Below, piece after piece: positions 1,573 through 47,762 of a DNA stretch of 64,000 nucleotides; position 1 is the first letter of the stretch, and each line of letters opens with the position of its first letter. Origin of the DNA: Rhodothermales bacterium (GTDB lineage: Bacteria > Bacteroidota > Rhodothermia > Rhodothermales > VXPQ01); contig JBBDTI010000013.1 in NCBI GenBank assembly GCA_040904565.1, positions 32,001 to 96,000 of the forward strand. The letters run 5' to 3'. The notes under the pieces were generated by a model. The model saw only the letters and a list, made by a program, of their open reading frames with translations, was not told the origin of the DNA and did not search any database. Position numbers and translations under genes: made by a program.

Positions 1573-2091
1573 CTAGAGGCGGGCGATGGGTCCGATGCGT
1601 GAATGGGTCAGGATGGCTTTTCGCTCTTCGGCCGTGGGGCGCGACGGGCGGTCACGGTCGCAGGGCACCTGGCAGAGAAATCCGAGCGGTTCATCCTCGT
1701 CGGCTTGAAGCTGATGCCACGTCCGTGAGGGAATGTGGAGCAGGTCGAAAGTGCCGACGTCCGCCACCTCGTCGCCGACGATGACCCTCCCACGACCGCG
1801 AAGGATGACGACGGAATGCGGGTGATCGTGCCGCTCGAACGTGGAATGTCCAGCGGGCTCGATTTCGAAGTAGCGTAGTTCGCATGGCTGACCGTCCTCT
1901 TCCGTGAAGAGGGTCTGCCGCGTGACGTCGCGGAAGTGGGATCCTTCATTCTTGTACCGTTTCAGGGGCACGTCTTCCCATCGATAGTCCTCTTCCTCGC
2001 TACGAAACCTGCGAAGGCGTCCATGAAGCGCGTCAGTGGACGGGGTGGGGGCAGCAGCCGGCTGCCCGGAATGCTCGGAGGAGCCTTTCAT
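1573..2091 (-). CDS. Cupin-domain protein, candidate 1-methylthio-xylulose-5-phosphate methylsulfurylase
   Basis: Cupin motifs 'LRYFEIEPAGHSTFERHDHPHSV.ILRGRG' and 'IPSRTWHQL...EPLGFLC.V..DRDRP'; lies directly downstream of an RLP gene. Confidence 0.8.
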   Translation of the reverse strand: MKGSSEHSGQPAAAPTPSTDALHGRLRRFRSEEEDYRWEDVPLKRYKNEGSHFRDVTRQTLFTEEDGQPCELRYFEIEPAGHSTFERHDHPHSVVILRGRGRVIVGDEVADVGTFDLLHIPSRTWHQLQADEDEPLGFLCQVPCDRDRPSRPTAEERKAILTHSRIGPIARL

Positions 2092-2268
2092 TGTCGTATG
2101 CTCGTGTCCTGTGCTCGTGTGTGTGTGGTCGCGCCGTGCGATCGTGTTGCATCCCGCGGGATGGACGGTGGTATTGAACGTGCTGGGCGTATGGCGCCGT
2201 ACGTCCGGTTGTTCCTCCTCGCGGGTGTCCTGCCCATCATGATCTCGGTAAATCGTCCGCGGCTGCCT

Positions 2269-3381
2269 TCACGCCTCCGGTAAATCGTCTGCGGCTTCCT
2301 CCACACGTTCGGTAAACTGCCGCGTTTTTTGTCGCAGCCGGTCCCCGGCCTTCAGGAGTGAACCGCCGACCAGCAGGATGACGTCTCGGCCGAAGAACCG
2401 GACGAGTTCCGCCGCGCGATCCGCAGTCATTCCGCCGGCCGGAACCGGGAATGCGGGTTTGAGGCCAAGCCAGGGATTGCGTAAACGCTCGGCGATATCC
2501 CGGCAGACATCGGGCGAAAAGCTGAATCGTCCGCCGTAATTGGCGAAAATGACGGCGTCGGCCCCGAATAGCCGAAACAATTTACCGTAGATGGTCGCGG
2601 GCCGTATGGATGCGACACCTCCAAAGCTCGGATGAGCCAGCACAGGGAGGTCCATCTCGGAGCGAATCATTTCGTGAAACGTCGGCATCCCGATGAGCAT
2701 GGGGGCCATCATGACGGCTCGTACGCCCGCCTTCTGTGCCGCCGCCGCCTGGCGCTTCAGCTGGTCGGGCGTACCCGATAGGTTTGGTACGTACACGCAG
2801 GAACGCCCGGTCTGAGCCGCCGCCTCCTCGACGACGGCTTGACAGACGCGGACGCGTTCGTCGAACGGCGCAAAGGAATGGTCCGCCAGATAGTGGTCGT
2901 CCTTGACCAGGTCGATGCCTCCCATGGCGAGCTCTTTGCAGACGTGGGCCGTCTCCTTGAGCGTCATTCCGACTGGTTTCAGGGCGCTGCACGTTATCGG
3001 GCGTCGTTCGGCGTTCGTTAGACTACGCAGTCCGTCCACGCCGAAGCGCGGGCCCGGAAGCAGTTCCGTAACGCCGGCCGGCGGGGTGAAATCTACCAGC
3101 TTCACTCCTTCGTGCAAGGATGAATTGCCGAAAAGGACGTTCAAGAATTGGGCAGGATCGACGGAGGCTGTGACGAAGGGCAGTGCGAGCGTCGCCTGCA
3201 CTCCTCGGTCTGCACAGCTTTCGATCCGGACGACGCGGCCCATCATGTTGTCGCGGACGTGCGGGTATCGCTCGGCCACGGATCGGGGCGTCTCGATCGT
3301 TTGTTCGAGGAGGATCGCGTCGACGCGATCATCAAACGGACCGCTTCCGGTGATCTGGTAAACTGCTTCGAGATATTCCAT
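2269..3381 (-). CDS. RuBisCO-like protein (form IV, KDDH/DeepYkr-type), candidate MTRu-1P isomerase
   Basis: RuBisCO-fold motifs 'EQTIE', 'GPRFGVDGLR', 'SALKPVG', 'GGIDLVKDDH', 'YVPN', 'LAHPS', 'FPVPAGG', 'VGGSL'; 370 aa; the carboxylase KDDE motif is replaced by KDDH. Confidence 0.92.
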   Translation of the reverse strand: MEYLEAVYQITGSGPFDDRVDAILLEQTIETPRSVAERYPHVRDNMMGRVVRIESCADRGVQATLALPFVTASVDPAQFLNVLFGNSSLHEGVKLVDFTPPAGVTELLPGPRFGVDGLRSLTNAERRPITCSALKPVGMTLKETAHVCKELAMGGIDLVKDDHYLADHSFAPFDERVRVCQAVVEEAAAQTGRSCVYVPNLSGTPDQLKRQAAAAQKAGVRAVMMAPMLIGMPTFHEMIRSEMDLPVLAHPSFGGVASIRPATIYGKLFRLFGADAVIFANYGGRFSFSPDVCRDIAERLRNPWLGLKPAFPVPAGGMTADRAAELVRFFGRDVILLVGGSLLKAGDRLRQKTRQFTERVEEAADDLPEA

Positions 3382-3609: not shown

Positions 3610-3999
3610 ATGAACGAGCGGGATGCGCATCCGGAGTGGACCATGACCCACGATCTCGGGTTGATCTATCTGGCATTGACCCTGGGTGCGGATGAAGATC
3701 TCGATGAGGCGGAGTTGGACGCTATGACCAGCAAACTGGAACAGTGGCAGCCTGAAGGTACGCTGCCTATCGCGTCCATCTTGCACGAGGTGATTCTCAT
3801 GTATGTCGGCTCATCCGGGGAGCAGATGCTGGAGACGGCCATTGTCTCGTTGCGCGATCAGCTGCCGAAATTGTCCCGGATGGCAGTTCTCGGCGATCTG
3901 GCGGATCTGGCGTCGGCCGACGGTACCGTGGTCATGCAGGAAGTAGATTTCATCCAGCAGTTGGCGCGCGACTGGGATGTCGATCGGGACGTCCGCTAG
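3610..3999 (+). CDS. TerB-family (tellurite-resistance-like) helical protein
   Basis: 'AD.DLDEAE' and '[11 protein letters not shown]...E..FI..LA..W' pattern typical of TerB folds. Confidence 0.7.
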
Positions 4000-4766
4000 G
4001 CGTTTCGCAGTACCTCGGCCAGGTTGCCCCGGCTTTCGCCTACGCATGCCGCCCCGATGATACCCGCCTCGTTCATGAGCTCGGCCGTCATGAGCCTCGC
4101 GCGCGTTTTGAGGAGGTGGAGGTATTTAGCCGTCTTCTTGGGTTTGCTGACGCCCCCACCGAGTATGAAGGTGTCGATGTCGAGCAGCCGTTCCACGTGA
4201 TCCAGATATTCCTGTACACGCTCGGCCCACCCATCCCATCCGAGGTCGTTTTCTTTCCGGATGCGGTCGGAGGCGTAATGCTCGGCGACCATTCCATTAA
4301 GATACAGGTGGCCGAACTCCGTATTGGGAAGGAGGGCCCGGTTGTTGAAGAGGGCCGATCCGATTCCGGTACCAAACGTAAGTAGAAGGACGACTCCGCC
4401 CAGCTCTCTTCCGGCACCGAACCGCATCTCGGCCACAGCGGCAGCGTCGGCATCGTTGAGGACGGCGACCGGGCATCCGGTCGCGTTGGAAAAGAGCGCC
4501 GCGGCATCCGTACCGATCCAGGCTTGATCGATATTCGCCGCTGTCGTGGCCACGCCCTGTCTGACGCGGGCGGGGATGCAGCATCCGAGGGGTCCGGTCC
4601 AGCAGAAATGGCGGACGATAGCCGCCGTGATCTCGGCGACGGACGCCGGGTGGGCACCATCGGGCGTGGCGATTCGTTTACGCCGTGCCGTGAGTCGTCC
4701 GCTTTGCGTGTCGACGGGTGCACCTTTAATGCCGGATCCGCCGACATCGATGCCTAAGATTTCCAC
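3996..4766 (-). CDS. ppgK: Polyphosphate glucokinase (ROK family)
   Basis: '[15 protein letters not shown]', 'AANID..W', 'LNDADAA..AE', 'TFGTGIGSA', 'PNTEFGH', 'ILGGGVSK', 'NEAGIIGAA'. Confidence 0.9.
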
Positions 4767-5136: not shown

Positions 5137-7038
5137 ATGTACTTCTCCGACGACATTATCGATGCGGTTCGTTCGGCGTCTGACATTGTCGACGTCGTTG
5201 GGGACTACGTGCGCCTTAAGAAGCGCGGATCCAATTATTTCGGCCTGTGCCCGTTCCACAGTGAAAATACGCCGTCGTTCAGCGTAAACCCGGCGATGGG
5301 GATTTTCAAGTGTTTCGGTTGCGGGGCAGGGGGAGACGTGTTCCAGTTCGTCATGCGCGTCGAAGGCATGTCGTTTCCGGAAGCCGTGCGAACGCTTGCG
5401 GAGAAAGCGGGTGTAGAGCTGCCGGAAGAGGGGGCTTCCGACAGGGATCGAATTAGCGAGACGGAGGCCGTCTACAGTGCCCTCCGATTCGCTGCGCGGT
5501 ACTTTTACCACGAGTTAACGCAGACGAGCGGGGGGAGTGCGGCGTTGACGTACCTGCGTGATCGCGGGTTTTCGAAGGCCACTATTAAGGAGTTCGGGCT
5601 GGGCTTCGCACCAAATAGTTGGGATGCGCTTCTCGAGGCCGCGAAGCAGCAGCATATCACGGTCGAGGTGCTCGAACAGGCCGGTCTCGTGATCCAGCGG
5701 AACGACGAGAGCGGCTACTACGACCGATTCCGGGGGCGGCTCATCTTTCCGATACTCTCGCACGTCGGCAAAGTACTGGGCTTCGGAGGACGCATTATGG
5801 AGGCGTCCTCCGACCAGCCCAAGTACATCAACTCACCCGAGACCCGCGTCTATAACAAGAGCCGCGTACTGTACGGTCTCTATCAGGCGAAACATGCCAT
5901 TCGGAAGCAGGAGGAAGTGTTTCTTGTAGAGGGGTACACGGACGTCATCTCGCTTCACCAGGCCGGCATTAGAAATGTCGTGGCTTCGAGCGGTACGTCA
6001 CTTACGAGGGACCAGGTGACGCTGCTGGGCCGGTACGCCAAGCGGATCGTTCTCGTATTTGATGCCGACGCCGCTGGTACAGGGGCCGCGATGCGAGGCA
6101 TCGAGATCGTTATTCCCGAAGGAATGTCCGCGTACATTGTGACGCTACCGGAGGGGGAGGATCCGGATTCCTTCGCCCGTCGAGAAGATGTTTCGATGGA
6201 GGCCTATCTCGATGAGCATCGATCCGACTTCGTAACCTACCTTCACGAGGTCGCCCGGCTGGAGGGTCAGCTCGACACGCCGGAAGGTGAGGCGGAGAAC
6301 ATGCACGCGATCTTGAGGATTATCTCGAGCATGCCGGATCCTCTTATGAGGGAAACGTATCTGCGGCGAGCGAGCGACGTGCTGGACGTGCCGGAGGGTC
6401 GCCTCCACGACGTGATCGACGGTCTTACGCCGTCGCGTCGTGCCAACCGCCGGTCTCACATCTCGCGGTCTCCGCTGCCTCCGCAGCGTCCGCCCGACGT
6501 GTCGGACGTGCGCGAGCGGCGCCGGAAGAGGCGGCGGGAGATCGCACCGCATCCCTCAGAAAAGAAGCTGATTCGACTGATGCTCGAACACGGTTCGTCG
6601 ATGGTGGAGTTCATTCTGCGCAACATGGCCATCAATGAATTCACCGAAGGCCCCGTTCGGCTCACGGTGGAGCACTTTCTCGAACAGTACGAGGCGGGCA
6701 CGATCAATAGACGCGCCTTCCTGGAGGGCCAGTACGGTACGGAGGTGCAGGAGCTTGCGGCCGAGGTAGCCATGATTCGCCACGAGCCGTCGGAAAATTG
6801 GGAGCGAAAACAGCGGATAACCGTACCCAAGCTGGACGGGGATCCGTACGACGCGGCCGCCAGTGCGATGACGTATCTCAAGCTCGATCGCGTCGAGCGT
6901 GCGATTGAAGAGAAGAAGAAGGAGCAGTACGAGGCGCAATCACGCGGTGAGGATGTGGGACCGTTGCAGGCCGACATCATGGAGCTGCAGCAGCTTCAAG
7001 GTCGGATCCGCCGTCAGGAATTTCTGGAAGATGAATAG
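5137..7038 (+). CDS. dnaG: DNA primase
   Basis: Zn-finger 'CPFH.E.TPSF', 'FKCFGCG', 'DRFRGR.IFPI', 'KYINSPET', TOPRIM 'VEGYTDV', 'FDADAAG', 'DPD'. Confidence 0.98.
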   Translation: MYFSDDIIDAVRSASDIVDVVGDYVRLKKRGSNYFGLCPFHSENTPSFSVNPAMGIFKCFGCGAGGDVFQFVMRVEGMSFPEAVRTLAEKAGVELPEEGASDRDRISETEAVYSALRFAARYFYHELTQTSGGSAALTYLRDRGFSKATIKEFGLGFAPNSWDALLEAAKQQHITVEVLEQAGLVIQRNDESGYYDRFRGRLIFPILSHVGKVLGFGGRIMEASSDQPKYINSPETRVYNKSRVLYGLYQAKHAIRKQEEVFLVEGYTDVISLHQAGIRNVVASSGTSLTRDQVTLLGRYAKRIVLVFDADAAGTGAAMRGIEIVIPEGMSAYIVTLPEGEDPDSFARREDVSMEAYLDEHRSDFVTYLHEVARLEGQLDTPEGEAENMHAILRIISSMPDPLMRETYLRRASDVLDVPEGRLHDVIDGLTPSRRANRRSHISRSPLPPQRPPDVSDVRERRRKRRREIAPHPSEKKLIRLMLEHGSSMVEFILRNMAINEFTEGPVRLTVEHFLEQYEAGTINRRAFLEGQYGTEVQELAAEVAMIRHEPSENWERKQRITVPKLDGDPYDAAASAMTYLKLDRVERAIEEKKKEQYEAQSRGEDVGPLQADIMELQQLQGRIRRQEFLEDE

Positions 7039-7043
7039 GCGAC

Positions 7044-9263
7044 ATGCCGATGAACCGTAGCGTCTCCTCCATAGACAGGATGGATCTGAGCGGGGATGGA
7101 GCGCCTCCGCCGACGCCGGAGTTCGCCGTACCGACGGCGACGTCTCCGCGTGGCGTGCCGAAGGATGCCTCGTTGGAGCATCCCCATCTCTTCTTCAATC
7201 GCGAGCTCAGCTGGCTCGATTTCAACTGGCGGGTGCTCTACCAGGCCATCGACGAGCGTACGCCGCTCCTTGAACGGGTTCGGTTTCTGGCGATCACGTC
7301 TACGAACCTCGACGAGTTCTTTCGGAAGCGCATCGGCGGTCTCAAGAGACAGGCGGCCGCGGGAGTGCGAGCTCGCTCGCCGGAAGGTAGATCCGCGAAG
7401 GAACAGCTGGATCTGATCCGCGACGCCGTTCATCCGATGTATTCCACGATGAATGAAACGTGGGAGACGCGGCTGCGGCCGCGGCTGGCCGAGCAGGCGG
7501 GCGTACATATCGAATCGTACGATGCGCTCAGTTCCAGGCAGAAGGAACGTCTGCATCGTTACTTTCAGGCACACGTCTTCCCCATTCTTACGCCACTGGC
7601 CGTAGATCCGGGACATCCGTTTCCGTTCATATCGAATCTCAGCCTTTCCCTGGCCGTGATGCTGCGCCATCCAGCGCGCGGAACGGAGCATTTTGCTCGT
7701 TTGAAGGTGCCGACGAGCAAGGGACGGTGGGTGCCGCTGGAAGAACCGCATCATTACGTCCCTATCGAGCAGGTCATCAAGCACAACCTGCACGAGCTGT
7801 TCCGCGGCATGGAAATCGAGCATGCCAGCGCCTTCCAGATCACGCGCAACGCCGACATCCGTCGAGATGAAGAAGAGGCCGACGATCTCATCGAAATGAT
7901 GTCGGAAGAGCTGCGCGAGCGGCGCTTTGCTCCGGTCGTCCGACTGGAAGTCGAGCAGGACATGCCGTCCCGCATTCTGGATCTCCTCGTTCGGGAGCTC
8001 TCGCTTTCGCCGGAGGACGTATTTCGCAGCTCAGGGCTGATCGACCACTCGGACTGCGAGTTTTTCGCGGACCTTGACCATCCCGAACTCAAGTATGCGT
8101 CGTGGAGCCCGGTCACGCCCTCGCGTCTTCTCTTCGAGGGAGAATCGAAGGACGAACCCGACATTTTCAGCATTATTCGAAATGGTGATCTCCTCGTTCA
8201 CCATCCGTACGAGTCGTTCAGGTCGAGCGTACAGCGATTTGTCGAAGAAGCGGCCTACGATCCGGACGTCGTCGCCATAAAGCAGACGCTGTATCGGACG
8301 TCGGAAGAGTCGCCGATCGTTGAATCGCTCATTCGGGCCGCTGAACGAGGTAAGCAGGTCGCCGTGCTCGTCGAGGTCAAGGCTCGTTTCGACGAAGAGA
8401 ACAATATCGAATGGGGACAGATGCTCGAGAAGTCGGGCGTCCACGTGACGTACGGTCTCGTAGGCCTGAAAACGCACGCGAAGGTCACGCTCGTCATCCG
8501 GAAGGAGGAGGACGGTCTGCGCGCATACTGCCACCTGGGCACGGGTAACTACAATCCGAAAACGGCTCGGCTGTATACGGACGTGGGGCTATTTACCTGT
8601 GCGCCGGACATCGGATACGACGTCATCAACCTGTTCCACTATCTGACGGGTTACGCGCCGGAGCAGCATTACCAGAAACTTCTGGTCGCGCCTCGCGACA
8701 TGAGAAAGGCGTTCATCACGCTCGTTCGGCGTGAGATCGAGCATCAGCGCGCGCACGGCGATGGACGCATCATTGCAAAGATGAATTCGATCGACGACGT
8801 TCAGATGATCGGAGAGTTATATAGCGCGTCCAGGGAGGGCGTCCAGATAGATCTCATCGTCCGAGGTCACTGCCGGCTGCGGCCGCGGCTTCCGAACTTC
8901 AGTGAGAATATTCGGGTTCGCAGCATCATCGGCCGTTTTCTCGAGCACAGCCGGATTTTCTACTTCAAAAACAACGGGCGCTCGCTCGTATATCTGGGCA
9001 GCGCAGACTGGCAGCGGCGGAATCTGGATGATCGAGTCGAGGCCATCATTCCCGTCGTAGAACCGGACCTTCGTGATCGGTGTATCCACCTTCTCCAGAT
9101 GTATCTGGATGATAGGCGGCTGGCCTGGGACCTGGGTGCGGACGGTCGTTTCAAGCAGCTGCGACCGGAAACGGAAGCGCAGAAGGTGGGCGTTCAGGAG
9201 GCACTCATGCGGCGAGCGAGACAGCGCACCGACGAACTGGATGCGCCGTGGGACATCGAGTGA
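7044..9263 (+). CDS. ppk1: Polyphosphate kinase 1
   Basis: 'FFNRELSWLDFNWRVL', 'HPFPFISN', 'HHPYESF', 'KARFDEENN', 'LKTHAK', 'GTGNYN', 'GRFLEHSR', 'SADW..RNLD.RVE'. Confidence 0.98.
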   Translation: MPMNRSVSSIDRMDLSGDGAPPPTPEFAVPTATSPRGVPKDASLEHPHLFFNRELSWLDFNWRVLYQAIDERTPLLERVRFLAITSTNLDEFFRKRIGGLKRQAAAGVRARSPEGRSAKEQLDLIRDAVHPMYSTMNETWETRLRPRLAEQAGVHIESYDALSSRQKERLHRYFQAHVFPILTPLAVDPGHPFPFISNLSLSLAVMLRHPARGTEHFARLKVPTSKGRWVPLEEPHHYVPIEQVIKHNLHELFRGMEIEHASAFQITRNADIRRDEEEADDLIEMMSEELRERRFAPVVRLEVEQDMPSRILDLLVRELSLSPEDVFRSSGLIDHSDCEFFADLDHPELKYASWSPVTPSRLLFEGESKDEPDIFSIIRNGDLLVHHPYESFRSSVQRFVEEAAYDPDVVAIKQTLYRTSEESPIVESLIRAAERGKQVAVLVEVKARFDEENNIEWGQMLEKSGVHVTYGLVGLKTHAKVTLVIRKEEDGLRAYCHLGTGNYNPKTARLYTDVGLFTCAPDIGYDVINLFHYLTGYAPEQHYQKLLVAPRDMRKAFITLVRREIEHQRAHGDGRIIAKMNSIDDVQMIGELYSASREGVQIDLIVRGHCRLRPRLPNFSENIRVRSIIGRFLEHSRIFYFKNNGRSLVYLGSADWQRRNLDDRVEAIIPVVEPDLRDRCIHLLQMYLDDRRLAWDLGADGRFKQLRPETEAQKVGVQEALMRRARQRTDELDAPWDIE

Positions 9264-31594: not shown

Positions 31595-32788
31595 CTAGAC
31601 GCCGGGCACCTCGTCTCCGAGCTTCTGCAGCACGAAGAATTTGAGATAGTGCGTTTCGGGCATCGTCGGCAGCACCGGATGATCGGCCGGCTGATAGCCG
31701 CGGTACAGCGTGCGCGTGCGCGATCCGCTGCGCCGCACACTGTATTCCACGGCCTTGAGGAAGTCGGCCTCGTCAACGGCCTGCGAACAGGAGGACGTGG
31801 CCAGTATGCCGCCGGGAGAGAGCATCTGCATGGCCGTAATATTGATACGCTGATATGCTTTCATGGCCTGATCGACCTGGCGTCGGCTCTTCGCGAATCC
31901 GGGTGGATCCAGGATAATGAGATCGTAGGTCTTGCCTGCTTCGGCCATCTCACCAAGTTGTTCGAGCGCATCCGCTTCGATGAATGACATCCTGTCGGCA
32001 AGACTGTTGCGCTCGGCGTTGCGGCGTGCTCGATCGAGTGCTGTAGAAGAGCTGTCGAGCATGTCGACGTGTGTCGCGCCGCCTGCTGCCGTGTGGAGAC
32101 CGAATCCCCCGTCAGCACAGAATACATCCAGCACGCTGCGCCCCGCGGCAAAGCGGCGGACCGATCGGCGATGGTCGCGTTGGTCGAGAAAAAATCCCGT
32201 CTTGGGACCGTGGAGCACATCGACGACGAACGTCACGTCGTCCTCGACGATTTCCACGGGGCCGTCGTAAGAGCCGCGCAGCACGCCCACAGCCTGTTCC
32301 AGACCATCCTTCTCACGCAGCGGTGCGTCGTCGCGCTGTATGATTGCGGTTGGATGGAGCAGGTCCTCAAGCGCGTCGAGCATGCCTTCACGTCTGGCAT
32401 CCATTCCGTAAGACAGTGTGGTCCAGGTAAGCACGTCACCGTACCTGTCGATGATGGTGCCGGGAAGCCCGTCGCTTTCGGAGAACGCGAGACGGTAATG
32501 GGTGGCGTCCCCGTATACCTGACGGCGCAGCGCCAGCGCCCGCTCGATGCGCTGCCGGAAAAACGCGTCGTCGACGGCTTGTCCGGCGTCGGCGGTAAGA
32601 AAACGTACGGCGATGAGCGATTCGTCGTGGTACAGCCCCTTGCCCAGAACATCCCCCGAATGATCCGCGATCTCGACGACGTCGCCGCGACCGGGATCGC
32701 CGCTCTCCTCCGCAATCAGGTTGGCGAAAACCCACGGATGCCCTCGGCGGAGGTACTTGTCCTTATTTTTCTTCAGCGTGATGCGCAT
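31595..32788 (-). CDS. rlmI: 23S rRNA m5C1962 methyltransferase (RlmI-like)
   Basis: PUA 'GHPWVF', 'ESDGLPG.IID.YG', 'KTGFFLDQR', 'VLDVFC..GGF', 'ILDPP.FA', 'DHP...PET.YLK'. Confidence 0.88.
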   Translation of the reverse strand: MRITLKKNKDKYLRRGHPWVFANLIAEESGDPGRGDVVEIADHSGDVLGKGLYHDESLIAVRFLTADAGQAVDDAFFRQRIERALALRRQVYGDATHYRLAFSESDGLPGTIIDRYGDVLTWTTLSYGMDARREGMLDALEDLLHPTAIIQRDDAPLREKDGLEQAVGVLRGSYDGPVEIVEDDVTFVVDVLHGPKTGFFLDQRDHRRSVRRFAAGRSVLDVFCADGGFGLHTAAGGATHVDMLDSSSTALDRARRNAERNSLADRMSFIEADALEQLGEMAEAGKTYDLIILDPPGFAKSRRQVDQAMKAYQRINITAMQMLSPGGILATSSCSQAVDEADFLKAVEYSVRRSGSRTRTLYRGYQPADHPVLPTMPETHYLKFFVLQKLGDEVPGV

Positions 32789-42555: not shown

Positions 42556-43764
42556 TCAAGCTACATTCTTAGCGGCAGGCTGACGGTCGCGCAGCAGGGA
42601 GACGGCGCGCCGATAGATCGAGCGATCGACCTCGTGGACGTTCACGCCGCGGCCGATGTCTTCCAGCAGCATGATCGTAAGCTCTCCTCCCAGATGCTCT
42701 CGGAAGGTATCCAGCCCTTGAAAGATACATCGTGGGTGGCCCGGCTCGTCGATATGCGCTCCAAGTTCAGGTACGTAAAGGTCGAAGCCGACGCCTTCCA
42801 GGAGCTGCAGCGTCCGTTCGCAGCTTTCCTGCTCGAGCATCCCCTTTAGGTGCGAGTACGTGACGTCCAATGCGATACCGATGGCGACGGCCTCTCCATG
42901 TCGCAATTCGTATCGCGTGAGCTGCTCGAGCTGGTGCGCCGCCCAGTGGCCGAAATCCAGCGGCCGGGAAGAACCCATCTCAAACGGGTCTCCGGATGTC
43001 GCGATGTGTTCGAGGTGCAGCTCTGCGCAGCGATATATCAACGAGCTCATGGCGTGGAGATCCCTCAGGTCGGGCGAGAGCCGATCCGCGTTCCGCTCGA
43101 GCTCGGCAAAGAAGTCGGCGTCTTTCAGCAATGCCACTTTCACGGCCTCGGAAATGCCCGATCGCCAATCGCGATCTTCCAACGAATGTAGGAACGCAGC
43201 GTCGTTCAGTACGGCGAAGGGAGGAGCGAACGTGCCAAGAAAATTCTTCGTATCGAATGCATTTACACCGTTCTTCACTCCGACGGCGGCGTCGTTCTGG
43301 CTAAGTACGGTGGTCGGCACGCGAATTAGGCGGATACCTCTATGGGCCGTGCCCGCGGCATATCCTACGACATCGATGATCGATCCGCCGCCTATCGCGA
43401 TGACGAATGAATGTCGGCACAGCCCCGCGTCGTAAATGGCCTGGAGAACGCGATGTACGCTATTGGGGTCGTTCTTGGCCTCTTCACCCCCTGCAAGGAT
43501 GACCGGAGGATGCGCGAGATGAAGTTCGGGACGTTGTTGCAGGTACATCGCCACACGCTTCTCAAGGTCCGGATAGTGGTCTAGCAATCCGCCGTCTAAC
43601 ACGACCACGATCTTATGCGGTCGCGGGTCGGACGTCGAAATCATCACGTCCGCAAGCGTGTCGTTGTTCGCCGAGAAGACATCCTTCGTAAAGTGGACGT
43701 CGTAGCGGAAGGAAACCTGTATGTCTTGCCGGATTGTCTCCATGGAGGCACGCTGATTACTCAT
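42556..43764 (-). CDS. eboD: EboD, 3-dehydroquinate-synthase-like sugar-phosphate cyclase
   Basis: 'GGE..KN', 'IGGG..ID..G.AA..AHRG', 'PTTVLSQND..VGVKNG.N', 'DPFE.GS.RPLDFGHW.AH', 'LRHGEAV', 'F.EHLGG.LT'. Confidence 0.92.
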   Translation of the reverse strand: MSNQRASMETIRQDIQVSFRYDVHFTKDVFSANNDTLADVMISTSDPRPHKIVVVLDGGLLDHYPDLEKRVAMYLQQRPELHLAHPPVILAGGEEAKNDPNSVHRVLQAIYDAGLCRHSFVIAIGGGSIIDVVGYAAGTAHRGIRLIRVPTTVLSQNDAAVGVKNGVNAFDTKNFLGTFAPPFAVLNDAAFLHSLEDRDWRSGISEAVKVALLKDADFFAELERNADRLSPDLRDLHAMSSLIYRCAELHLEHIATSGDPFEMGSSRPLDFGHWAAHQLEQLTRYELRHGEAVAIGIALDVTYSHLKGMLEQESCERTLQLLEGVGFDLYVPELGAHIDEPGHPRCIFQGLDTFREHLGGELTIMLLEDIGRGVNVHEVDRSIYRRAVSLLRDRQPAAKNVA

Positions 43765-43879
43765 TACTGCAGCGCCGCATCATGTACAGGGGGCTGCATG
43801 GCGGCGGACCGCCTTTTCATACCGTCCAGTCTTCGAAAAGATCGGAACGTTTCGTCGGACTCCTTCCCGGGGCAGCCGT

Positions 43880-44779
43880 TCAGGTTACGGCAAATAGTTT
43901 TGCCATGCCGAGGGAGACGGGTAAGAGGAGCAGCACGGTGAGGCCTGCCGCCCATCCCGCAAATCCGGCGGCGAGCGTGGCATCCATTGCGACGAGGGCG
44001 AGCACGCCGGTGCGGACTGCCTTGCGGATGTGGTCGGGAGACGGCCGGGCCGCCGCCTGCACGAAGGGGGGAAAGACGAGGGATCCGAAGATCGCGAGAA
44101 ATGGCAGTGCGTGCAACGTACGGTAGTCGAGTCGAAGTCCAAGCAGAAGGAGGCCGCCCGTAACGACGGCCGCGAGGCAAACAGCCAGTGTGCCGGTGCC
44201 GCGCGAGCCGCCGTGCACTTCTCCGCGACTGATGGCGGTTACGGCACCGATGTACGCTACGGGTATCAGCCCGATATACCAGATCTCGTACAGCATTCCG
44301 GGAAGGACCGAAGCACCCAGCAGCAGGTTAGCGCCGCGGCACGCCCCCATGTTGATAGGGCCGAGGAGGGCGTGGTGTTTTCCTGCCGCATCGTAGGTAA
44401 GGGCACCTATCGCGATGGCGAGGGCCACCATGAAAGGGATGAGTCCGACCGCGAGAGCGGCCGCAAGACCGATCGCCAGCAGCACCGAGCCGTATACGGC
44501 TGCGTGCATTTGCGGAATCCTGCCGCTGGGAATGGGACGTTCCGGTCGTTCACGTGCGTCGAGTGGGGCATCGAACACATCGTTAAAGACCACCCCCCCG
44601 GCGTAGAGTCCGCCCGTTGCTGCAAGGAGGTAGAAGAGATCTCCACCGTACGGCGTCTCGAAACCGAGCAGGAAGGCACCGGCTGCGGCAAAGCCGGCCA
44701 GCACGTCGGCGAAAGCGGTGACGACGTTGGCCGGTCTGGCGAGCTCCAGATACGCTCTCAGACGTTCGACCGGCATCAT
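43880..44779 (-). CDS. eboC: EboC, UbiA-family prenyltransferase
   Basis: 'RPAN..TA.AD.LAG', 'Y.GG...ND.FD..LD..ERPERP.PSG', 'YD...K', 'MG.CRG.N.LLG', 'SRGEV.G'. Confidence 0.93.
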   Translation of the reverse strand: MMPVERLRAYLELARPANVVTAFADVLAGFAAAGAFLLGFETPYGGDLFYLLAATGGLYAGGVVFNDVFDAPLDARERPERPIPSGRIPQMHAAVYGSVLLAIGLAAALAVGLIPFMVALAIAIGALTYDAAGKHHALLGPINMGACRGANLLLGASVLPGMLYEIWYIGLIPVAYIGAVTAISRGEVHGGSRGTGTLAVCLAAVVTGGLLLLGLRLDYRTLHALPFLAIFGSLVFPPFVQAAARPSPDHIRKAVRTGVLALVAMDATLAAGFAGWAAGLTVLLLLPVSLGMAKLFAVT

Positions 44780-45705
44780 TCTATAATCACACTGTCCGAT
44801 TCGGTCCGGTCCACGACGGGCGTTTGTCCGCCTCGAAGAATCGAATTCCCACCGTATAGTTCGCGCTGGTCGATCGAGGCGGGCTCCAGCCAGTCACTCT
44901 CGGAAAACTCACCGCTCTGCCCGTATGCGGCGAGTGCGTTCTCGTACGTAACGGTTCGAATCTGCTCTTCGGGGACTCCGCGCTCGGACATCAAGCGTGC
45001 CGTCTTGGGAACGGCCAGGGGATCGCTGATGCCCCAGTCGGCCGCGCTGTTGATGAAGATCCGCTCCGTACCGTACTGGCGGACGACCTCGATCATCCGC
45101 TCGTTGCCCATTTTCGTGTTCGGATAAATCGTGAAGGCGGCCCAATAGCCGCGATCGAGGACTTCCTCCACCGTCTCCTCGTTATTGTGATCGACGATGA
45201 CGTGCGTGGGGTCGAGCTCCAGCTCGTCGCAGACGTCCATGCTGCGACTCGTACCTTCCTTCTTGTTCCGATGCGGCGTGTGGATCAGCACGAGCATGTC
45301 CAGCTCCTTGGCCAGCTCCAGCTGCCGGCGAAAGTACTTGTCTTCCGCGGGGGTCATGTCGTCATAGCCGATCTCGCCGATAGCGACGACACCTTCCTTG
45401 GCCGCGTACAGCGGGAGGAGCTCCATCACCTCTTCCGCGAGCGGCTCATTGTTCGCTTCCTTGGAGTTAAGTCCGATCGTGCAGTAGTGACGGATCCCGA
45501 ACTGTCCCGCTCGAAACCGCTCCCATCCAACGATCATCGAGAAGTAATCCTTGAAGGATCCGCGCGTGGTTCGGGACTGCCCGAGCCAGAAGGCGGGCTC
45601 GATCACGGCGACGATACCGGCGTCCCGCATCGCCTCGTAATCGTCGGTCGTGCGAGAGATCATATGCACGTGTGGATCGATGAATATCATGTCGTTCAGA
45701 GACAT
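44776..45705 (-). CDS. eboB: EboB, TatD-family metallohydrolase
   Basis: 'DPH.HM.SRTTDDY', 'EPAFWLGQ.RT', 'GLNSKEANN', 'HTPHR.K', 'DHNNE', 'ADWG.SDPLAVPKT'. Start set at MSLND (45705). Confidence 0.92.
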   Translation of the reverse strand: MSLNDMIFIDPHVHMISRTTDDYEAMRDAGIVAVIEPAFWLGQSRTTRGSFKDYFSMIVGWERFRAGQFGIRHYCTIGLNSKEANNEPLAEEVMELLPLYAAKEGVVAIGEIGYDDMTPAEDKYFRRQLELAKELDMLVLIHTPHRNKKEGTSRSMDVCDELELDPTHVIVDHNNEETVEEVLDRGYWAAFTIYPNTKMGNERMIEVVRQYGTERIFINSAADWGISDPLAVPKTARLMSERGVPEEQIRTVTYENALAAYGQSGEFSESDWLEPASIDQRELYGGNSILRGGQTPVVDRTESDSVIIE

Positions 45706-45755
45706 AGAGATGGAGGGTTTAGATGATCTAATGCGATGACGTCCGGCGGGAAAGA

Positions 45756-46664
45756 CTATGCGGGGACGGGTATCCGGTTCCGGCTGAAAGATTTCCACGT
45801 GAGCTCGCCTGACATCACACGCTGCTTCAGGTCCGGTTGCGCTGCGAGCAGGTCCCCGGCGCGATCCGAGCCGGCGTCGGCGAGCGCCAGGGCGGCAGCC
45901 TCTCGCTCCGCCTCGTCGTCGCTCTGTAGCACGCGTTCCAGCTCTTCGAGAAACGTTTCGCCCGCAAAGGGGCCTACCGGCCGCCACAACTCCGGCGATA
46001 CCGGGCGATCCGCGGCCCAGCGTTCGTGGGCGTAGTCAACGAGCATGCGGGCCAGATCGGAATTGGCGCGGTCGTCAAGCCCCCGGATCTTATGCAGCGG
46101 GCTGTCTATAAAGAGGGCCTTCAGGACCATCTGATTCCACGCCGCGTCATCGAGATACTCACTGGGATAGGGGTTGTCGTGGGCCACGGCGTTGAACACC
46201 GACTTCATGTTCGTGCGAAGTCCCTCCGCGCATCGGTCCGGAAAACGGGTCGGATGCGGAAAGAGAGGCAGCATCTGGTACAGCGCAACCGACTCGCGGA
46301 CGTCGGCCGTGGAGAAGACCTGATCGAGCGTCTCGACGTAGGCATCCGGATCCCCGTGCGGGTAAGAGAGGACGAGCACCGTCCGCCCCGCCTGGTCGAT
46401 GCTCCACCCTGACGGCGTCCATCCCGCTCTGAGCGCGCGGGCGTCGGCCACGTCCGACTCAGTTATCTCGAGATCCTCCTTGCCCAGATACCGGGGCACG
46501 GCACTGAACGCCGTGAAGAATTTCCAGGCGGGTGCCCCCGATTCGATTTCTGCCTGCTTCGCCCGAAGCCAGTCGACCTCCTCGTTTGTAGATTGACGAA
46601 CGATCCAGGCGCAGAGCAGGTCCTTGACGCGGGAGGGATCGGCTTGATGTCGGGGAGCAGTCAT
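45756..46664 (-). CDS. eboA: EboA
   Basis: 'W..DQ..R', 'E..ALY..LP', 'EGLRTNM..VF.A.A..NPYP...L...AWNQ.VLK..F', 'GL..RAN..LA.ML.DYAHERWAA.R.V.PELW'. Confidence 0.9.
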   Translation of the reverse strand: MTAPRHQADPSRVKDLLCAWIVRQSTNEEVDWLRAKQAEIESGAPAWKFFTAFSAVPRYLGKEDLEITESDVADARALRAGWTPSGWSIDQAGRTVLVLSYPHGDPDAYVETLDQVFSTADVRESVALYQMLPLFPHPTRFPDRCAEGLRTNMKSVFNAVAHDNPYPSEYLDDAAWNQMVLKALFIDSPLHKIRGLDDRANSDLARMLVDYAHERWAADRPVSPELWRPVGPFAGETFLEELERVLQSDDEAEREAAALALADAGSDRAGDLLAAQPDLKQRVMSGELTWKSFSRNRIPVPA

Positions 46665-46721: not shown

Positions 46722-47762
46722 ATGATCCCACCGCTGCGATGGAATGACCGGAACGTCAGCGTGCGTCTGCTGGATCAGACGCGCCTGCCTACAGAGGAAA
46801 TCTGGCTGGAGTTAACGACGCCGGAAGAGATGGCCGAGGCGATTCGGAGCCTGCGCATTCGGGGCGCCCCTGCGATCGGTATAGCGGCGGCCTATGGCGT
46901 CGTCCTCGCGCTCCGAGACGGCGAAGGAGATCCGTACGAACGCGTTCAGCTGGCGGCCGACCTACTGGAGAGCACGCGTCCGACGGCGGTGAATCTCTTC
47001 TTTGCCTTGGAGCGGATGCGGATTGTGGCGCGGGCCCATCGAGACGCGGGGGAGGACGCACTGAGAGCACGGCTTCTGGAGGAAGCCTCCGCGCTATTCA
47101 GGGAAGATGTCGAGGCCGGAAAGCGGCTCGGCGAGCTGGGGCTGTCGTTGCTCCCAGAGAACGCCACGGTGCTGACGCATTGCCATACCGGCGGTGTCGC
47201 GACCTCGGGATACGGCACGGCGCTTGCGCCGCTGATCCTGTCGCGCGAGAAAGGGCAAACGCTGTCGGCGTATGTGGACGAGACGCGGCCGCTGCTTCAG
47301 GGCAGTCGAATTACCGCATGGGAGCTTCAGAAGGAGGGCGTGCCGGCGACCTTGATCGCCGATTCCGTGGCCGGTCACGTCATGCGGGACGGCCGCATCG
47401 ACGCCGTCGTGGTCGGCGCGGATCGCATCGCGGCGAACGGCGATGTGGCCAACAAGATCGGTACCTATTCGCTGGCCGTGCTGGCTCGTGCCCACGACAT
47501 CCCGTTCTACGTGTTCGCGCCGCGCTCGACCGTGGATCTCGACACGTCGACGGGTGATGAGATCGAGATCGAGGAACGGGCGGGAGAGGAAATCACGCAC
47601 GGTTTCGGACGCCAGACGGGTCCGGATGGAATCACTGTTTACAATCCTGCGTTCGACGTAACTCCTGCACGGCTCGTTTCGGCTATTATTACGGAGCACG
47701 GTATCGTACGTCCACCCTACAAACAGACGCTTCGCTCTCTTTTTGAAGAGGTAGTTGCATGA
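46722..47762 (+). CDS. mtnA: S-methyl-5-thioribose-1-phosphate isomerase
   Basis: 'LDQTRLP', 'RGAPAIG', 'RPTAVNL', 'LTHC.TG..AT.G.GTA', 'DETRPLLQG.R.TAWEL', 'GADRIAANGDVANKIGTY', 'NPAFDVTP'. Confidence 0.96.
   Translation: MIPPLRWNDRNVSVRLLDQTRLPTEEIWLELTTPEEMAEAIRSLRIRGAPAIGIAAAYGVVLALRDGEGDPYERVQLAADLLESTRPTAVNLFFALERMRIVARAHRDAGEDALRARLLEEASALFREDVEAGKRLGELGLSLLPENATVLTHCHTGGVATSGYGTALAPLILSREKGQTLSAYVDETRPLLQGSRITAWELQKEGVPATLIADSVAGHVMRDGRIDAVVVGADRIAANGDVANKIGTYSLAVLARAHDIPFYVFAPRSTVDLDTSTGDEIEIEERAGEEITHGFGRQTGPDGITVYNPAFDVTPARLVSAIITEHGIVRPPYKQTLRSLFEEVVA

Follow-up and report, generated by a model that had tools for sequence, protein, structure and literature searches.

The closest described relatives of the genes treated here belong to the shunt that leads from 5'-methylthioadenosine (MTA) to 1-deoxyxylulose-5-phosphate (DXP). 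Known from purple bacteria, it converts MTA, which arises as waste from S-adenosylmethionine (SAM), to methanethiol and DXP, a precursor of isoprenoids. In Rhodospirillum rubrum, the RuBisCO-like protein (RLP) Rru_A1998 is a 5-methylthioribulose-1-phosphate (MTRu-1P) isomerase and Rru_A2000 is a cupin-type 1-methylthioxylulose-5-phosphate (MTXu-5P) sulfurylase, as given in the consulted parts of PMC4958253. Their counterparts in Rhodopseudomonas palustris, RPA2169 and RPA2170 (which share 53% and 56% identity with these), perform the same shunt steps, based on the deletion and metabolite work described in the consulted parts of PMC5893883. The RLP-cupin pair itself is ordinary, with its pathway and enzymes worked out in these two organisms. 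Here we analyze such a pair in a 64,000-nucleotide stretch of DNA (the window; positions 32,001 to 96,000 of contig JBBDTI010000013.1, assembly GCA_040904565.1) from a Rhodothermales bacterium of sediment origin, whose genome assembly is 94.9% complete in 95 contigs. Four sequencing runs are listed for the stretch, all of sediment metagenome DNA and none of RNA. A preliminary description of the window, made from its sequence alone, had proposed that the RLP, the cupin and an mtnA gene encode three steps of the shunt in a different phylum, making the organism a potential methanethiol producer with a Dxs-independent source of DXP, and our analysis supports this interpretation in part. The best explanation, and in our judgment quite a probable one, is that the MtnA-RLP-cupin shunt serves as methylthio-sugar salvage and not as the main DXP supply of the organism.

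The genes are those initially listed, with coordinates and family profiles in agreement for the RLP, the cupin, dapD and mtnA (Table 1). On the minus strand, the RLP gene is followed by the cupin gene after a gap of 177 nt and this in turn by dapD after 40 nt, with no terminator-like site found between them on that strand in a promoter and terminator scan whose counts were at chance level. dapD adjoins the pair in synteny but is not known to take part in the shunt. The motifs noted earlier can be read straight from the RLP translation: SALKPVGMT (K135, P136 and V137; KPVG at 135-138) replaces KPKLG with loss of the second lysine, and DLVKDDHY (K160, D161, D162 and H163) replaces KDDE. An alignment of 26 members of the RLP family shows K135, P136, K160, D161, D162 and H163 to be invariant. 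The active site is thus that of a non-carboxylase, and the protein would not fix carbon. We take KDDH, the lost second lysine of KPKLG and a chain of about 370 residues to be the marks of the DeepYkr-type RLP clade, R. rubrum included. Residues 117-341 match the Pfam family RuBisCO_large (PF00016) at 81.5 bits against a cut-off of 30.1, and the top match in the PDB is the 378-residue RLP 3qfw (E 2.1e-87, 296.8 bits). The same PDB search gave 144.4 bits for the YkrW-type 2,3-diketo-5-methylthiopentyl-1-phosphate (DK-MTP-1P) enolase 2oek, 98 for the Chlorobium RLP and 84 for RLP2 of R. palustris. The protein also stays under the NCBIfam cut-offs for the MtnW equivalogs (NF007095, 195 bits vs 409; TIGR03332, 142.5 vs 513.6), form III (116 vs 497) and OiaX (89 vs 700). 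An assignment as a YkrW/MtnW enolase was rejected on these low PDB scores and missed cut-offs.

The cupin matches Cupin_2 (PF07883) at 48.5 bits. Its best relative of solved structure is 3jzv, deposited as "uncharacterized protein Rru_A2000" (E 1.8e-39, 138.5 bits), followed by 3ibm (123 bits) and 3kgz (121 bits), and then by TM1459 with only 29 bits. The window cupin retains each of the 24 positions found invariant in 70 RLP-linked cupins, among them H88, H90, H92, H126 and C140, and the conserved cupin cysteine reportedly has a catalytic role (Warlick et al. 2012).

Where the nearest RLP homologues carry an organism name, it is Rhodothermales, Rhodothermaceae or Rhodothermus profundi; in the tree, too, the window RLP falls with these, so that the early guess of a Rhodothermota-like genome proved right. 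A scan with the pattern G-x-D-x-x-KDDH, taking one genome per species, found relatives in at least 587 genomes. The best 80 of these come from Rhodothermota, Chloroflexota (Caldilineaceae), Verrucomicrobiota, Myxococcota, Actinomycetota, Gemmatimonadota, Eremiobacterota, Acidobacteriota, Deinococcota (Meiothermus), and Beta- and Alphaproteobacteria; together with 9 loci of genomes belonging to the order of the window, they make up a pool of 89 loci. In 70 of the 89 loci, the gene directly downstream of the RLP gene and on its strand encodes a cupin homologue, and these loci are spread over phyla including Rhodothermota, Chloroflexota, Verrucomicrobiota, Gemmatimonadota, Deinococcota, Actinomycetota, Acidobacteriota and Pseudomonadota; in the other 19, two of which have less than 100 nt of downstream DNA, none was found in the available sequence. 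The order RLP-cupin-dapD occurs in 9 of the 89 loci, all within the Rhodothermota group of the tree. The claim of an occurrence in a different phylum holds insofar as the pair is present in Rhodothermota, but this is not new, as the pair is found in many phyla and has been tabulated for Rhodothermus marinus. Adjacency is also the rule in most other lineages, unlike in a Rhodothermus-like genus where the cupin gene is about 10.5 kb from the RLP gene on the opposite strand (G003:C1:2394000-2411000), with glgX, a hemD-like gene, hemA and an Xaa-Pro peptidase gene in between.

The FastTree phylogeny comprised 101 rows, namely the window RLP, the 89 loci and 11 other RuBisCO-family proteins of the same phylum (a true RuBisCO, two OiaX-like RLPs and eight RLPs of Chlorobi type, four of them individually labelled), with YkrW, R. 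rubrum and R. palustris sequences left outside. The 90 short KDDH RLPs come together in a single clade (support 100), to which neither the true RuBisCO nor the OiaX-like and Chlorobi-type RLPs belong. Within it, the window RLP pairs with those of two genomes of its own family (support 96), this trio is nested in an 18-row Rhodothermota group (support 91, under the star threshold), and alphaproteobacterial loci (Rhodoblastus and Bradyrhizobium) are included. A clustering with YkrW enolases or sugar-acid RLPs, named at the outset as evidence against the shunt, was not seen, the OiaX-like proteins standing apart in the tree and YkrW being excluded by the scores. Because of the cupin match, the shared gene architecture and these alphaproteobacterial rows inside the RLP clade, the RLP can be linked to the characterised enzymes, and the comparisons indicate for both the RLP and the cupin a kinship of probable orthologue grade with the shunt enzymes of R. 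rubrum and R. palustris. Many RLP relatives (representatives P0141-P0255) are 500-785 residues long, forms of 520-550 residues included, which suggests that they are fusions.

Profile searches of the genome provide the surroundings of the pair. Dxr is present (498.7 bits), as are two O-acetylhomoserine/O-acetylserine sulfhydrylases (689 and 606.5 bits), both of which the preliminary description had proposed to look for. MtnC and MtnD were not found, nor was MtnB, the top matches to the MtnB profile being AraD, an OtnC fusion and a 258-aa aldolase; the expected absence of mtnB, mtnC and mtnD was thus seen, and a complete mtnBCD set without any DXP-consuming pathway, which had been considered to speak against the shunt, is not what this genome holds. 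With MtnB, MtnC and MtnD all unfound, the preferred reading of the pair is that it provides the sole route by which the order salvages methylthio sugars. By analogy with the characterised enzymes, MtnA would convert 5-methylthioribose-1-phosphate (MTR-1P) to MTRu-1P, the RLP would shift the carbonyl by 1,3-proton transfer to yield MTXu-5P, and the cupin, with a metal and a thiol, would remove the methylthio group to release DXP and methanethiol. Dxr would then pass DXP into the methylerythritol phosphate (MEP) pathway, and one of the two O-acetylhomoserine sulfhydrylases could rebuild methionine from methanethiol. The chemistry predicted for the RLP and the cupin is deduced from sequence comparison, and the assignment of this putative pathway by homology, synteny and co-inheritance is well supported.

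Co-inheritance was assessed across 121 genomes of the order, the window genome included; because these relatives are not independent, the counts are given without a statistical test. The RLP is encoded in 33 of them and the cupin in 31, all RLP-positive, the two misses being fragmented assemblies. MtnA is found in 53 genomes, comprising 31 of the 33 RLP-positive and 22 of the 88 RLP-negative ones, and the two RLP-positive genomes without it are 90% and 81% complete. The spermidine synthase family PF01564 matches in 28 genomes. Twenty of these matches are strong (E<=1e-53), in frames that span 238 to 511 aa and mostly measure about 300 aa, and every one of them falls in an RLP-positive genome, whereas seven RLP-negative genomes show only a weaker match in longer frames of about 510-610 aa. 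SpeE is present in two copies in the Rhodothermus-like genus, and in the window's own family one genome (G208) has SpeE while another (G181) lacks it. The RLP and the cupin therefore travel with MtnA and aminopropyl-polyamine synthesis, and not with the loss of Dxs. Since the shunt genes track polyamine synthesis and MtnA, the shunt appears to be a means of MTA disposal and not the missing DXP synthase, and it is most economical to regard the RLP-cupin pair as the MTA disposal and sulphur-salvage route of the order, with DXP as a by-product as in R. rubrum.

These counts also bear on the nature of the substrate. The pair might act mainly on a compound not derived from MTA, in that MtnA and the RLP would use 5-deoxyribose-1-phosphate, from 5'-deoxyadenosine, or imported methylthioribose, and the cupin would handle only a minor methylthio fraction. 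5'-Deoxyadenosine is a by-product of radical-SAM enzymes, and the same 1,3-isomerisation of a 5-deoxy sugar would give 1-deoxy-pentulose-5-phosphates directly, a chemistry that follows by direct inference from the known RLP reaction. Such a role would be in keeping with the failure to find an aminopropyltransferase in the window genome and in 12 other RLP-positive genomes of the order, and with the promiscuity of MtnA towards a 5-deoxy sugar in M. jannaschii, as described in the consulted parts of PMC6302742. However, the cupin, which only a methylthio substrate would require, is retained in nearly all the RLP genomes (31/33) and is adjacent in most of the pooled loci, and the restriction of typical SpeE to RLP-positive genomes ties the pair to MTA production. 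A main substrate other than an MTA derivative is thus unlikely in our assessment.

Several observations weigh against the salvage of MTA-derived sugars through this shunt. In the window, mtnA is unlinked to the RLP gene at a distance of 43 kb, and it occurs in the RLP flanks of none of the 89 loci. The identity to the characterised proteobacterial enzymes is low, at about 45-50%, and the comparison contained no sequence of the R. rubrum RLP (Rru_A1998). Of the enzymes that could supply MTR-1P and that the preliminary description had asked for, none exceeds its cut-off in the genome: MtnP reaches 84 bits against 275, MtnN 22 against 74, and MtnK 32 against 275, the last with a kinase of another family. 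Across the order, where MtnP and MtnK were searched (MtnN being searched in the window genome only), MtnP is over the cut-off in 1 of the 121 genomes and MtnK in none. Entry through an MTA deaminase was considered and dropped, as no MtaD-like protein was present among the four amidohydrolase frames scanned out of nine Amidohydro_1 matches. PF01564 has no match in the genome (other sources of MTA were not searched), and a tblastn search with SpeE from the same order gave a best E value of 3.7. Thus the shunt core and its downstream users are encoded, and neither the MTR-1P-forming step nor a classical MTA source was found; of the three-step shunt initially claimed, MtnA, the RLP and the cupin stand, but with the entry enzyme and SpeE not found, the pathway is incomplete here. 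Each single absence is weak evidence, because the assembly is 94.9% complete and in 95 contigs, but for MtnP and MtnK the order sample shows the same lack.

Taken together, the missing SpeE, MtnP, MtnN and MtnK might indicate that the pair in the window is stranded and now carries hardly any flux or none, as the remnant of an ancestral capacity to make aminopropyl polyamines, and the presence of SpeE in G208 and its absence in G181 of the same family would fit such a loss. But the RLP and cupin reading frames are intact, with none of the invariant residues of either family lost, and MtnA has been retained. In addition, about 5% of the marker genes are missing from the assembly, so that SpeE may simply be unassembled, and among the MTA-forming enzymes the search covered SpeE. 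We consider such a remnant highly improbable.

As to how MTR-1P would be formed, both genes matched by the MtnP profile are purine nucleoside phosphorylase (PNP) equivalogs. The genome has two trimeric PNP paralogues that are 38% identical to each other, PNP-A (C62 L002:1165-2043) and PNP-B (C31 L003:1306-2139). PNP-A reads ITD...SLE where PNP-B reads ITN...SHE, and the best PDB relatives of PNP-A, 4m1e and 4lna, carry the same TD motif. The variant positions presumably correspond to Asn243 of human PNP, which recognises 6-oxopurines, and to His257, which contacts the 5'-hydroxyl. As a lead, aspartate and leucine at these positions in PNP-A would favour adenine nucleosides whose 5' group is non-polar, and PNP-A is hence a possible adenosine/MTA phosphorylase. 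PNP-A is universal in the order, and PNP-B orthologues occur in most of its genomes, with or without MtnA. For PNP-B, this presence independent of MtnA makes the phyletic pattern uninformative with regard to a role as MTA phosphorylase. Nor could the location of PNP-A beside SpeE in the Rhodothermus-like genus be used as a link, as divIVA and yggS of a cell-division cluster intervene and the adjacency is probably accidental. The enzyme that forms MTR-1P here is neither canonical MtnP nor MtnN together with MtnK. Since the sampled order has virtually no MtnP or MtnK match above the cut-off and yet 53 of its genomes have MtnA, a non-canonical phosphorylase is indicated, and we infer that a PNP paralogue is the best candidate. 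A broader version of this idea, which we put forward only tentatively and regard as rather doubtful, is that the shunt of the whole order is non-canonical and involves two enzymes not yet described. A PNP-family phosphorylase (PNP-A) would produce MTR-1P, and the 88 of the 121 genomes without a Dxs match would make most of their DXP by a route of another kind, to which the RLP-cupin pair would add a trickle coupled to polyamine synthesis in those lineages that have aminopropyl polyamines.

The supply of DXP in this order has attracted attention because of R. marinus. A metabolic model from 2024 (PMC11730185), in the parts consulted, reports all the MEP genes except dxs, gives the source of DXP as unknown, calls the shunt genes "partially present", and describes increased carotenoid levels upon addition of a Thermus dxs. 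A 2023 study that scored 4,400 genomes by KOfam (PMC10663253) lists RLP, cupin, DxrI, DxrII and IspD-H as present and Dxs as absent for R. marinus DSM 4252, with no mevalonate genes, in its Table S2. In a large table of the same source, Salinibacter ruber shares its code with R. marinus in the first gene column and bears the reverse of the R. marinus code in the final two; by analogy with the labelled Table S2, this may be read as a lack of Dxs, RLP and cupin. The idea of the shunt is thus already on record, though only as a possibility, for another bacterium of the order. Beyond these two papers we found none on the RLP or the cupin of Rhodothermota, and no biochemical work on them.

It could accordingly be asked whether the RLP-cupin pair replaces Dxs in providing most of the DXP from which isoprenoids, thiamin and pyridoxal phosphate are made. 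The window genome has Dxr, and Dxs was not found in it (top score 67.9 bits, cut-off 466), the proteins matched by the Dxs profile (C69:5083-7173, C12:25951-28173 and C83:9346-11367) being pyruvate dehydrogenase (PDH) E1 alpha/beta, a fused E1 alpha-beta protein and a transketolase. The same pattern together with RLP and cupin is what PMC10663253 tabulates for R. marinus, and a replacement is raised as a possibility in the consulted parts of PMC11730185. The distribution across the order argues otherwise. Dxr is present in 116 of the 121 genomes (99 of the 100 of good quality), while Dxs, over the cut-off in 136 of 151 genomes at the level of the phylum, is found in only 33 and is confined to six families. 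Yet among the 88 genomes without Dxs, which include several single-contig genomes, only 27 have the RLP and 61 lack it; among the 33 with Dxs, six have the RLP as well and 27 do not. One genus of the window's own family, represented by six genomes (four single-contig), keeps Dxr without Dxs, RLP, cupin or MtnA. One MTA can yield at most one DXP, and with no spermidine synthase found in the window genome the supply of MTA should be small. A replacement of Dxs by the pair is therefore very unlikely in our view. Because 61 of the 88 genomes without Dxs are also without the RLP, another source of DXP must exist in those 61, and probably also in the window genome. The Dxs-independent source of DXP initially proposed holds in a literal sense, as the genome lacks Dxs, but the distribution across the order gives no support to a link between the shunt and life without Dxs. 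The fused PDH-E1 alpha-beta protein (740 aa, C12:25951-28173) was tried as a Dxs substitute and discarded, for it is present in 119 of the 121 genomes whatever their Dxs status.

The remaining genes around the pair and mtnA are included in Table 1. A gene for a polyphosphate-glucose phosphotransferase is located directly upstream of the RLP gene, and two further frames resemble DnaG primase and polyphosphate kinase 1 by eye. mtnA stands back to back with an ebo-type cluster (42556-46664, minus strand).

Table 1. Features of the window, with positions counted from its first nucleotide
Feature	Position	Strand	Basis
dapD, 281 aa, tetrahydrodipicolinate N-succinyltransferase	687-1532	minus	NF008808, 311 bits vs cut-off 204
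Cupin, 172 aa, predicted 1-methylthioxylulose-5-phosphate methylsulfurylase	1573-2091	minus	Cupin_2 PF07883; PDB 3jzv
RLP, 370 aa, short KDDH form IV, predicted 5-methylthioribulose-1-phosphate 1,3-isomerase	2269-3381	minus	PF00016; PDB 3qfw; tree
Polyphosphate-glucose phosphotransferase	3996-4766	minus	NF045942, 305.6 bits
Frame resembling DnaG primase	5137-7038		by eye
Frame of 739 aa resembling polyphosphate kinase 1	7044-9263	plus	by eye
3-dehydroquinate-synthase-like gene	42556-43764	minus	ebo-type cluster
EboC, UbiA-like	43880-44779	minus	ebo-type cluster
TatD-like hydrolase	44776-45987	minus	ebo-type cluster
EboA	45756-46664	minus	ebo-type cluster
mtnA, S-methyl-5-thioribose-1-phosphate isomerase	46722-47762	plus	TIGR00512, 419.5 bits vs cut-off 279

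These findings give context to the puzzle in print of how R. marinus makes DXP without Dxs. Shunt genes that track aminopropyl-polyamine synthesis and MtnA, and not the absence of Dxs, point to MTA disposal and not to the DXP synthase being sought. The field of candidates for the true substitute of Dxs thereby becomes smaller, and a missing MTA-cleaving enzyme is flagged. Both points can be tested in R. marinus, which is genetically tractable, with shuttle vectors and deletions described in PMC11730185.

Among known systems, the window resembles the R. rubrum and R. palustris shunt in that it has a short KDDH RLP with an adjacent cupin, in a genome with MtnA, Dxr and O-acetylhomoserine sulfhydrylase and with no MtnB, MtnC or MtnD found, as reported for those organisms in the consulted parts of PMC5893883 and PMC4958253. 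It differs in that the MtnP of R. rubrum (Rru_A0361) and of R. palustris (RPA4821) has no counterpart found here, and in that Dxs, spermidine synthase and an Ald2-type aldolase for the parallel dihydroxyacetone phosphate (DHAP) shunt are likewise lacking from the genome. The window moreover belongs to another phylum, with the moderate sequence identity mentioned above, and has dapD as the downstream neighbour of the pair. The YkrW/MtnW enolase of Bacillus and Geobacillus (2oek and 2zvi) is also a form IV RLP of methionine salvage that shares the fold and the K-D-D metal and carbamate motif region with the window RLP, but the latter has KDDH instead of KDDE, is about 40 residues shorter, and lacks MtnB, MtnX and MtnD partners in its genome. 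R. marinus DSM 4252, of the same order, likewise has RLP, cupin and Dxr and no Dxs, whereas in the Rhodothermus-like genus the cupin gene is distant and SpeE is present in two copies, unlike the window, where the pair is adjacent and no SpeE was found in the genome.

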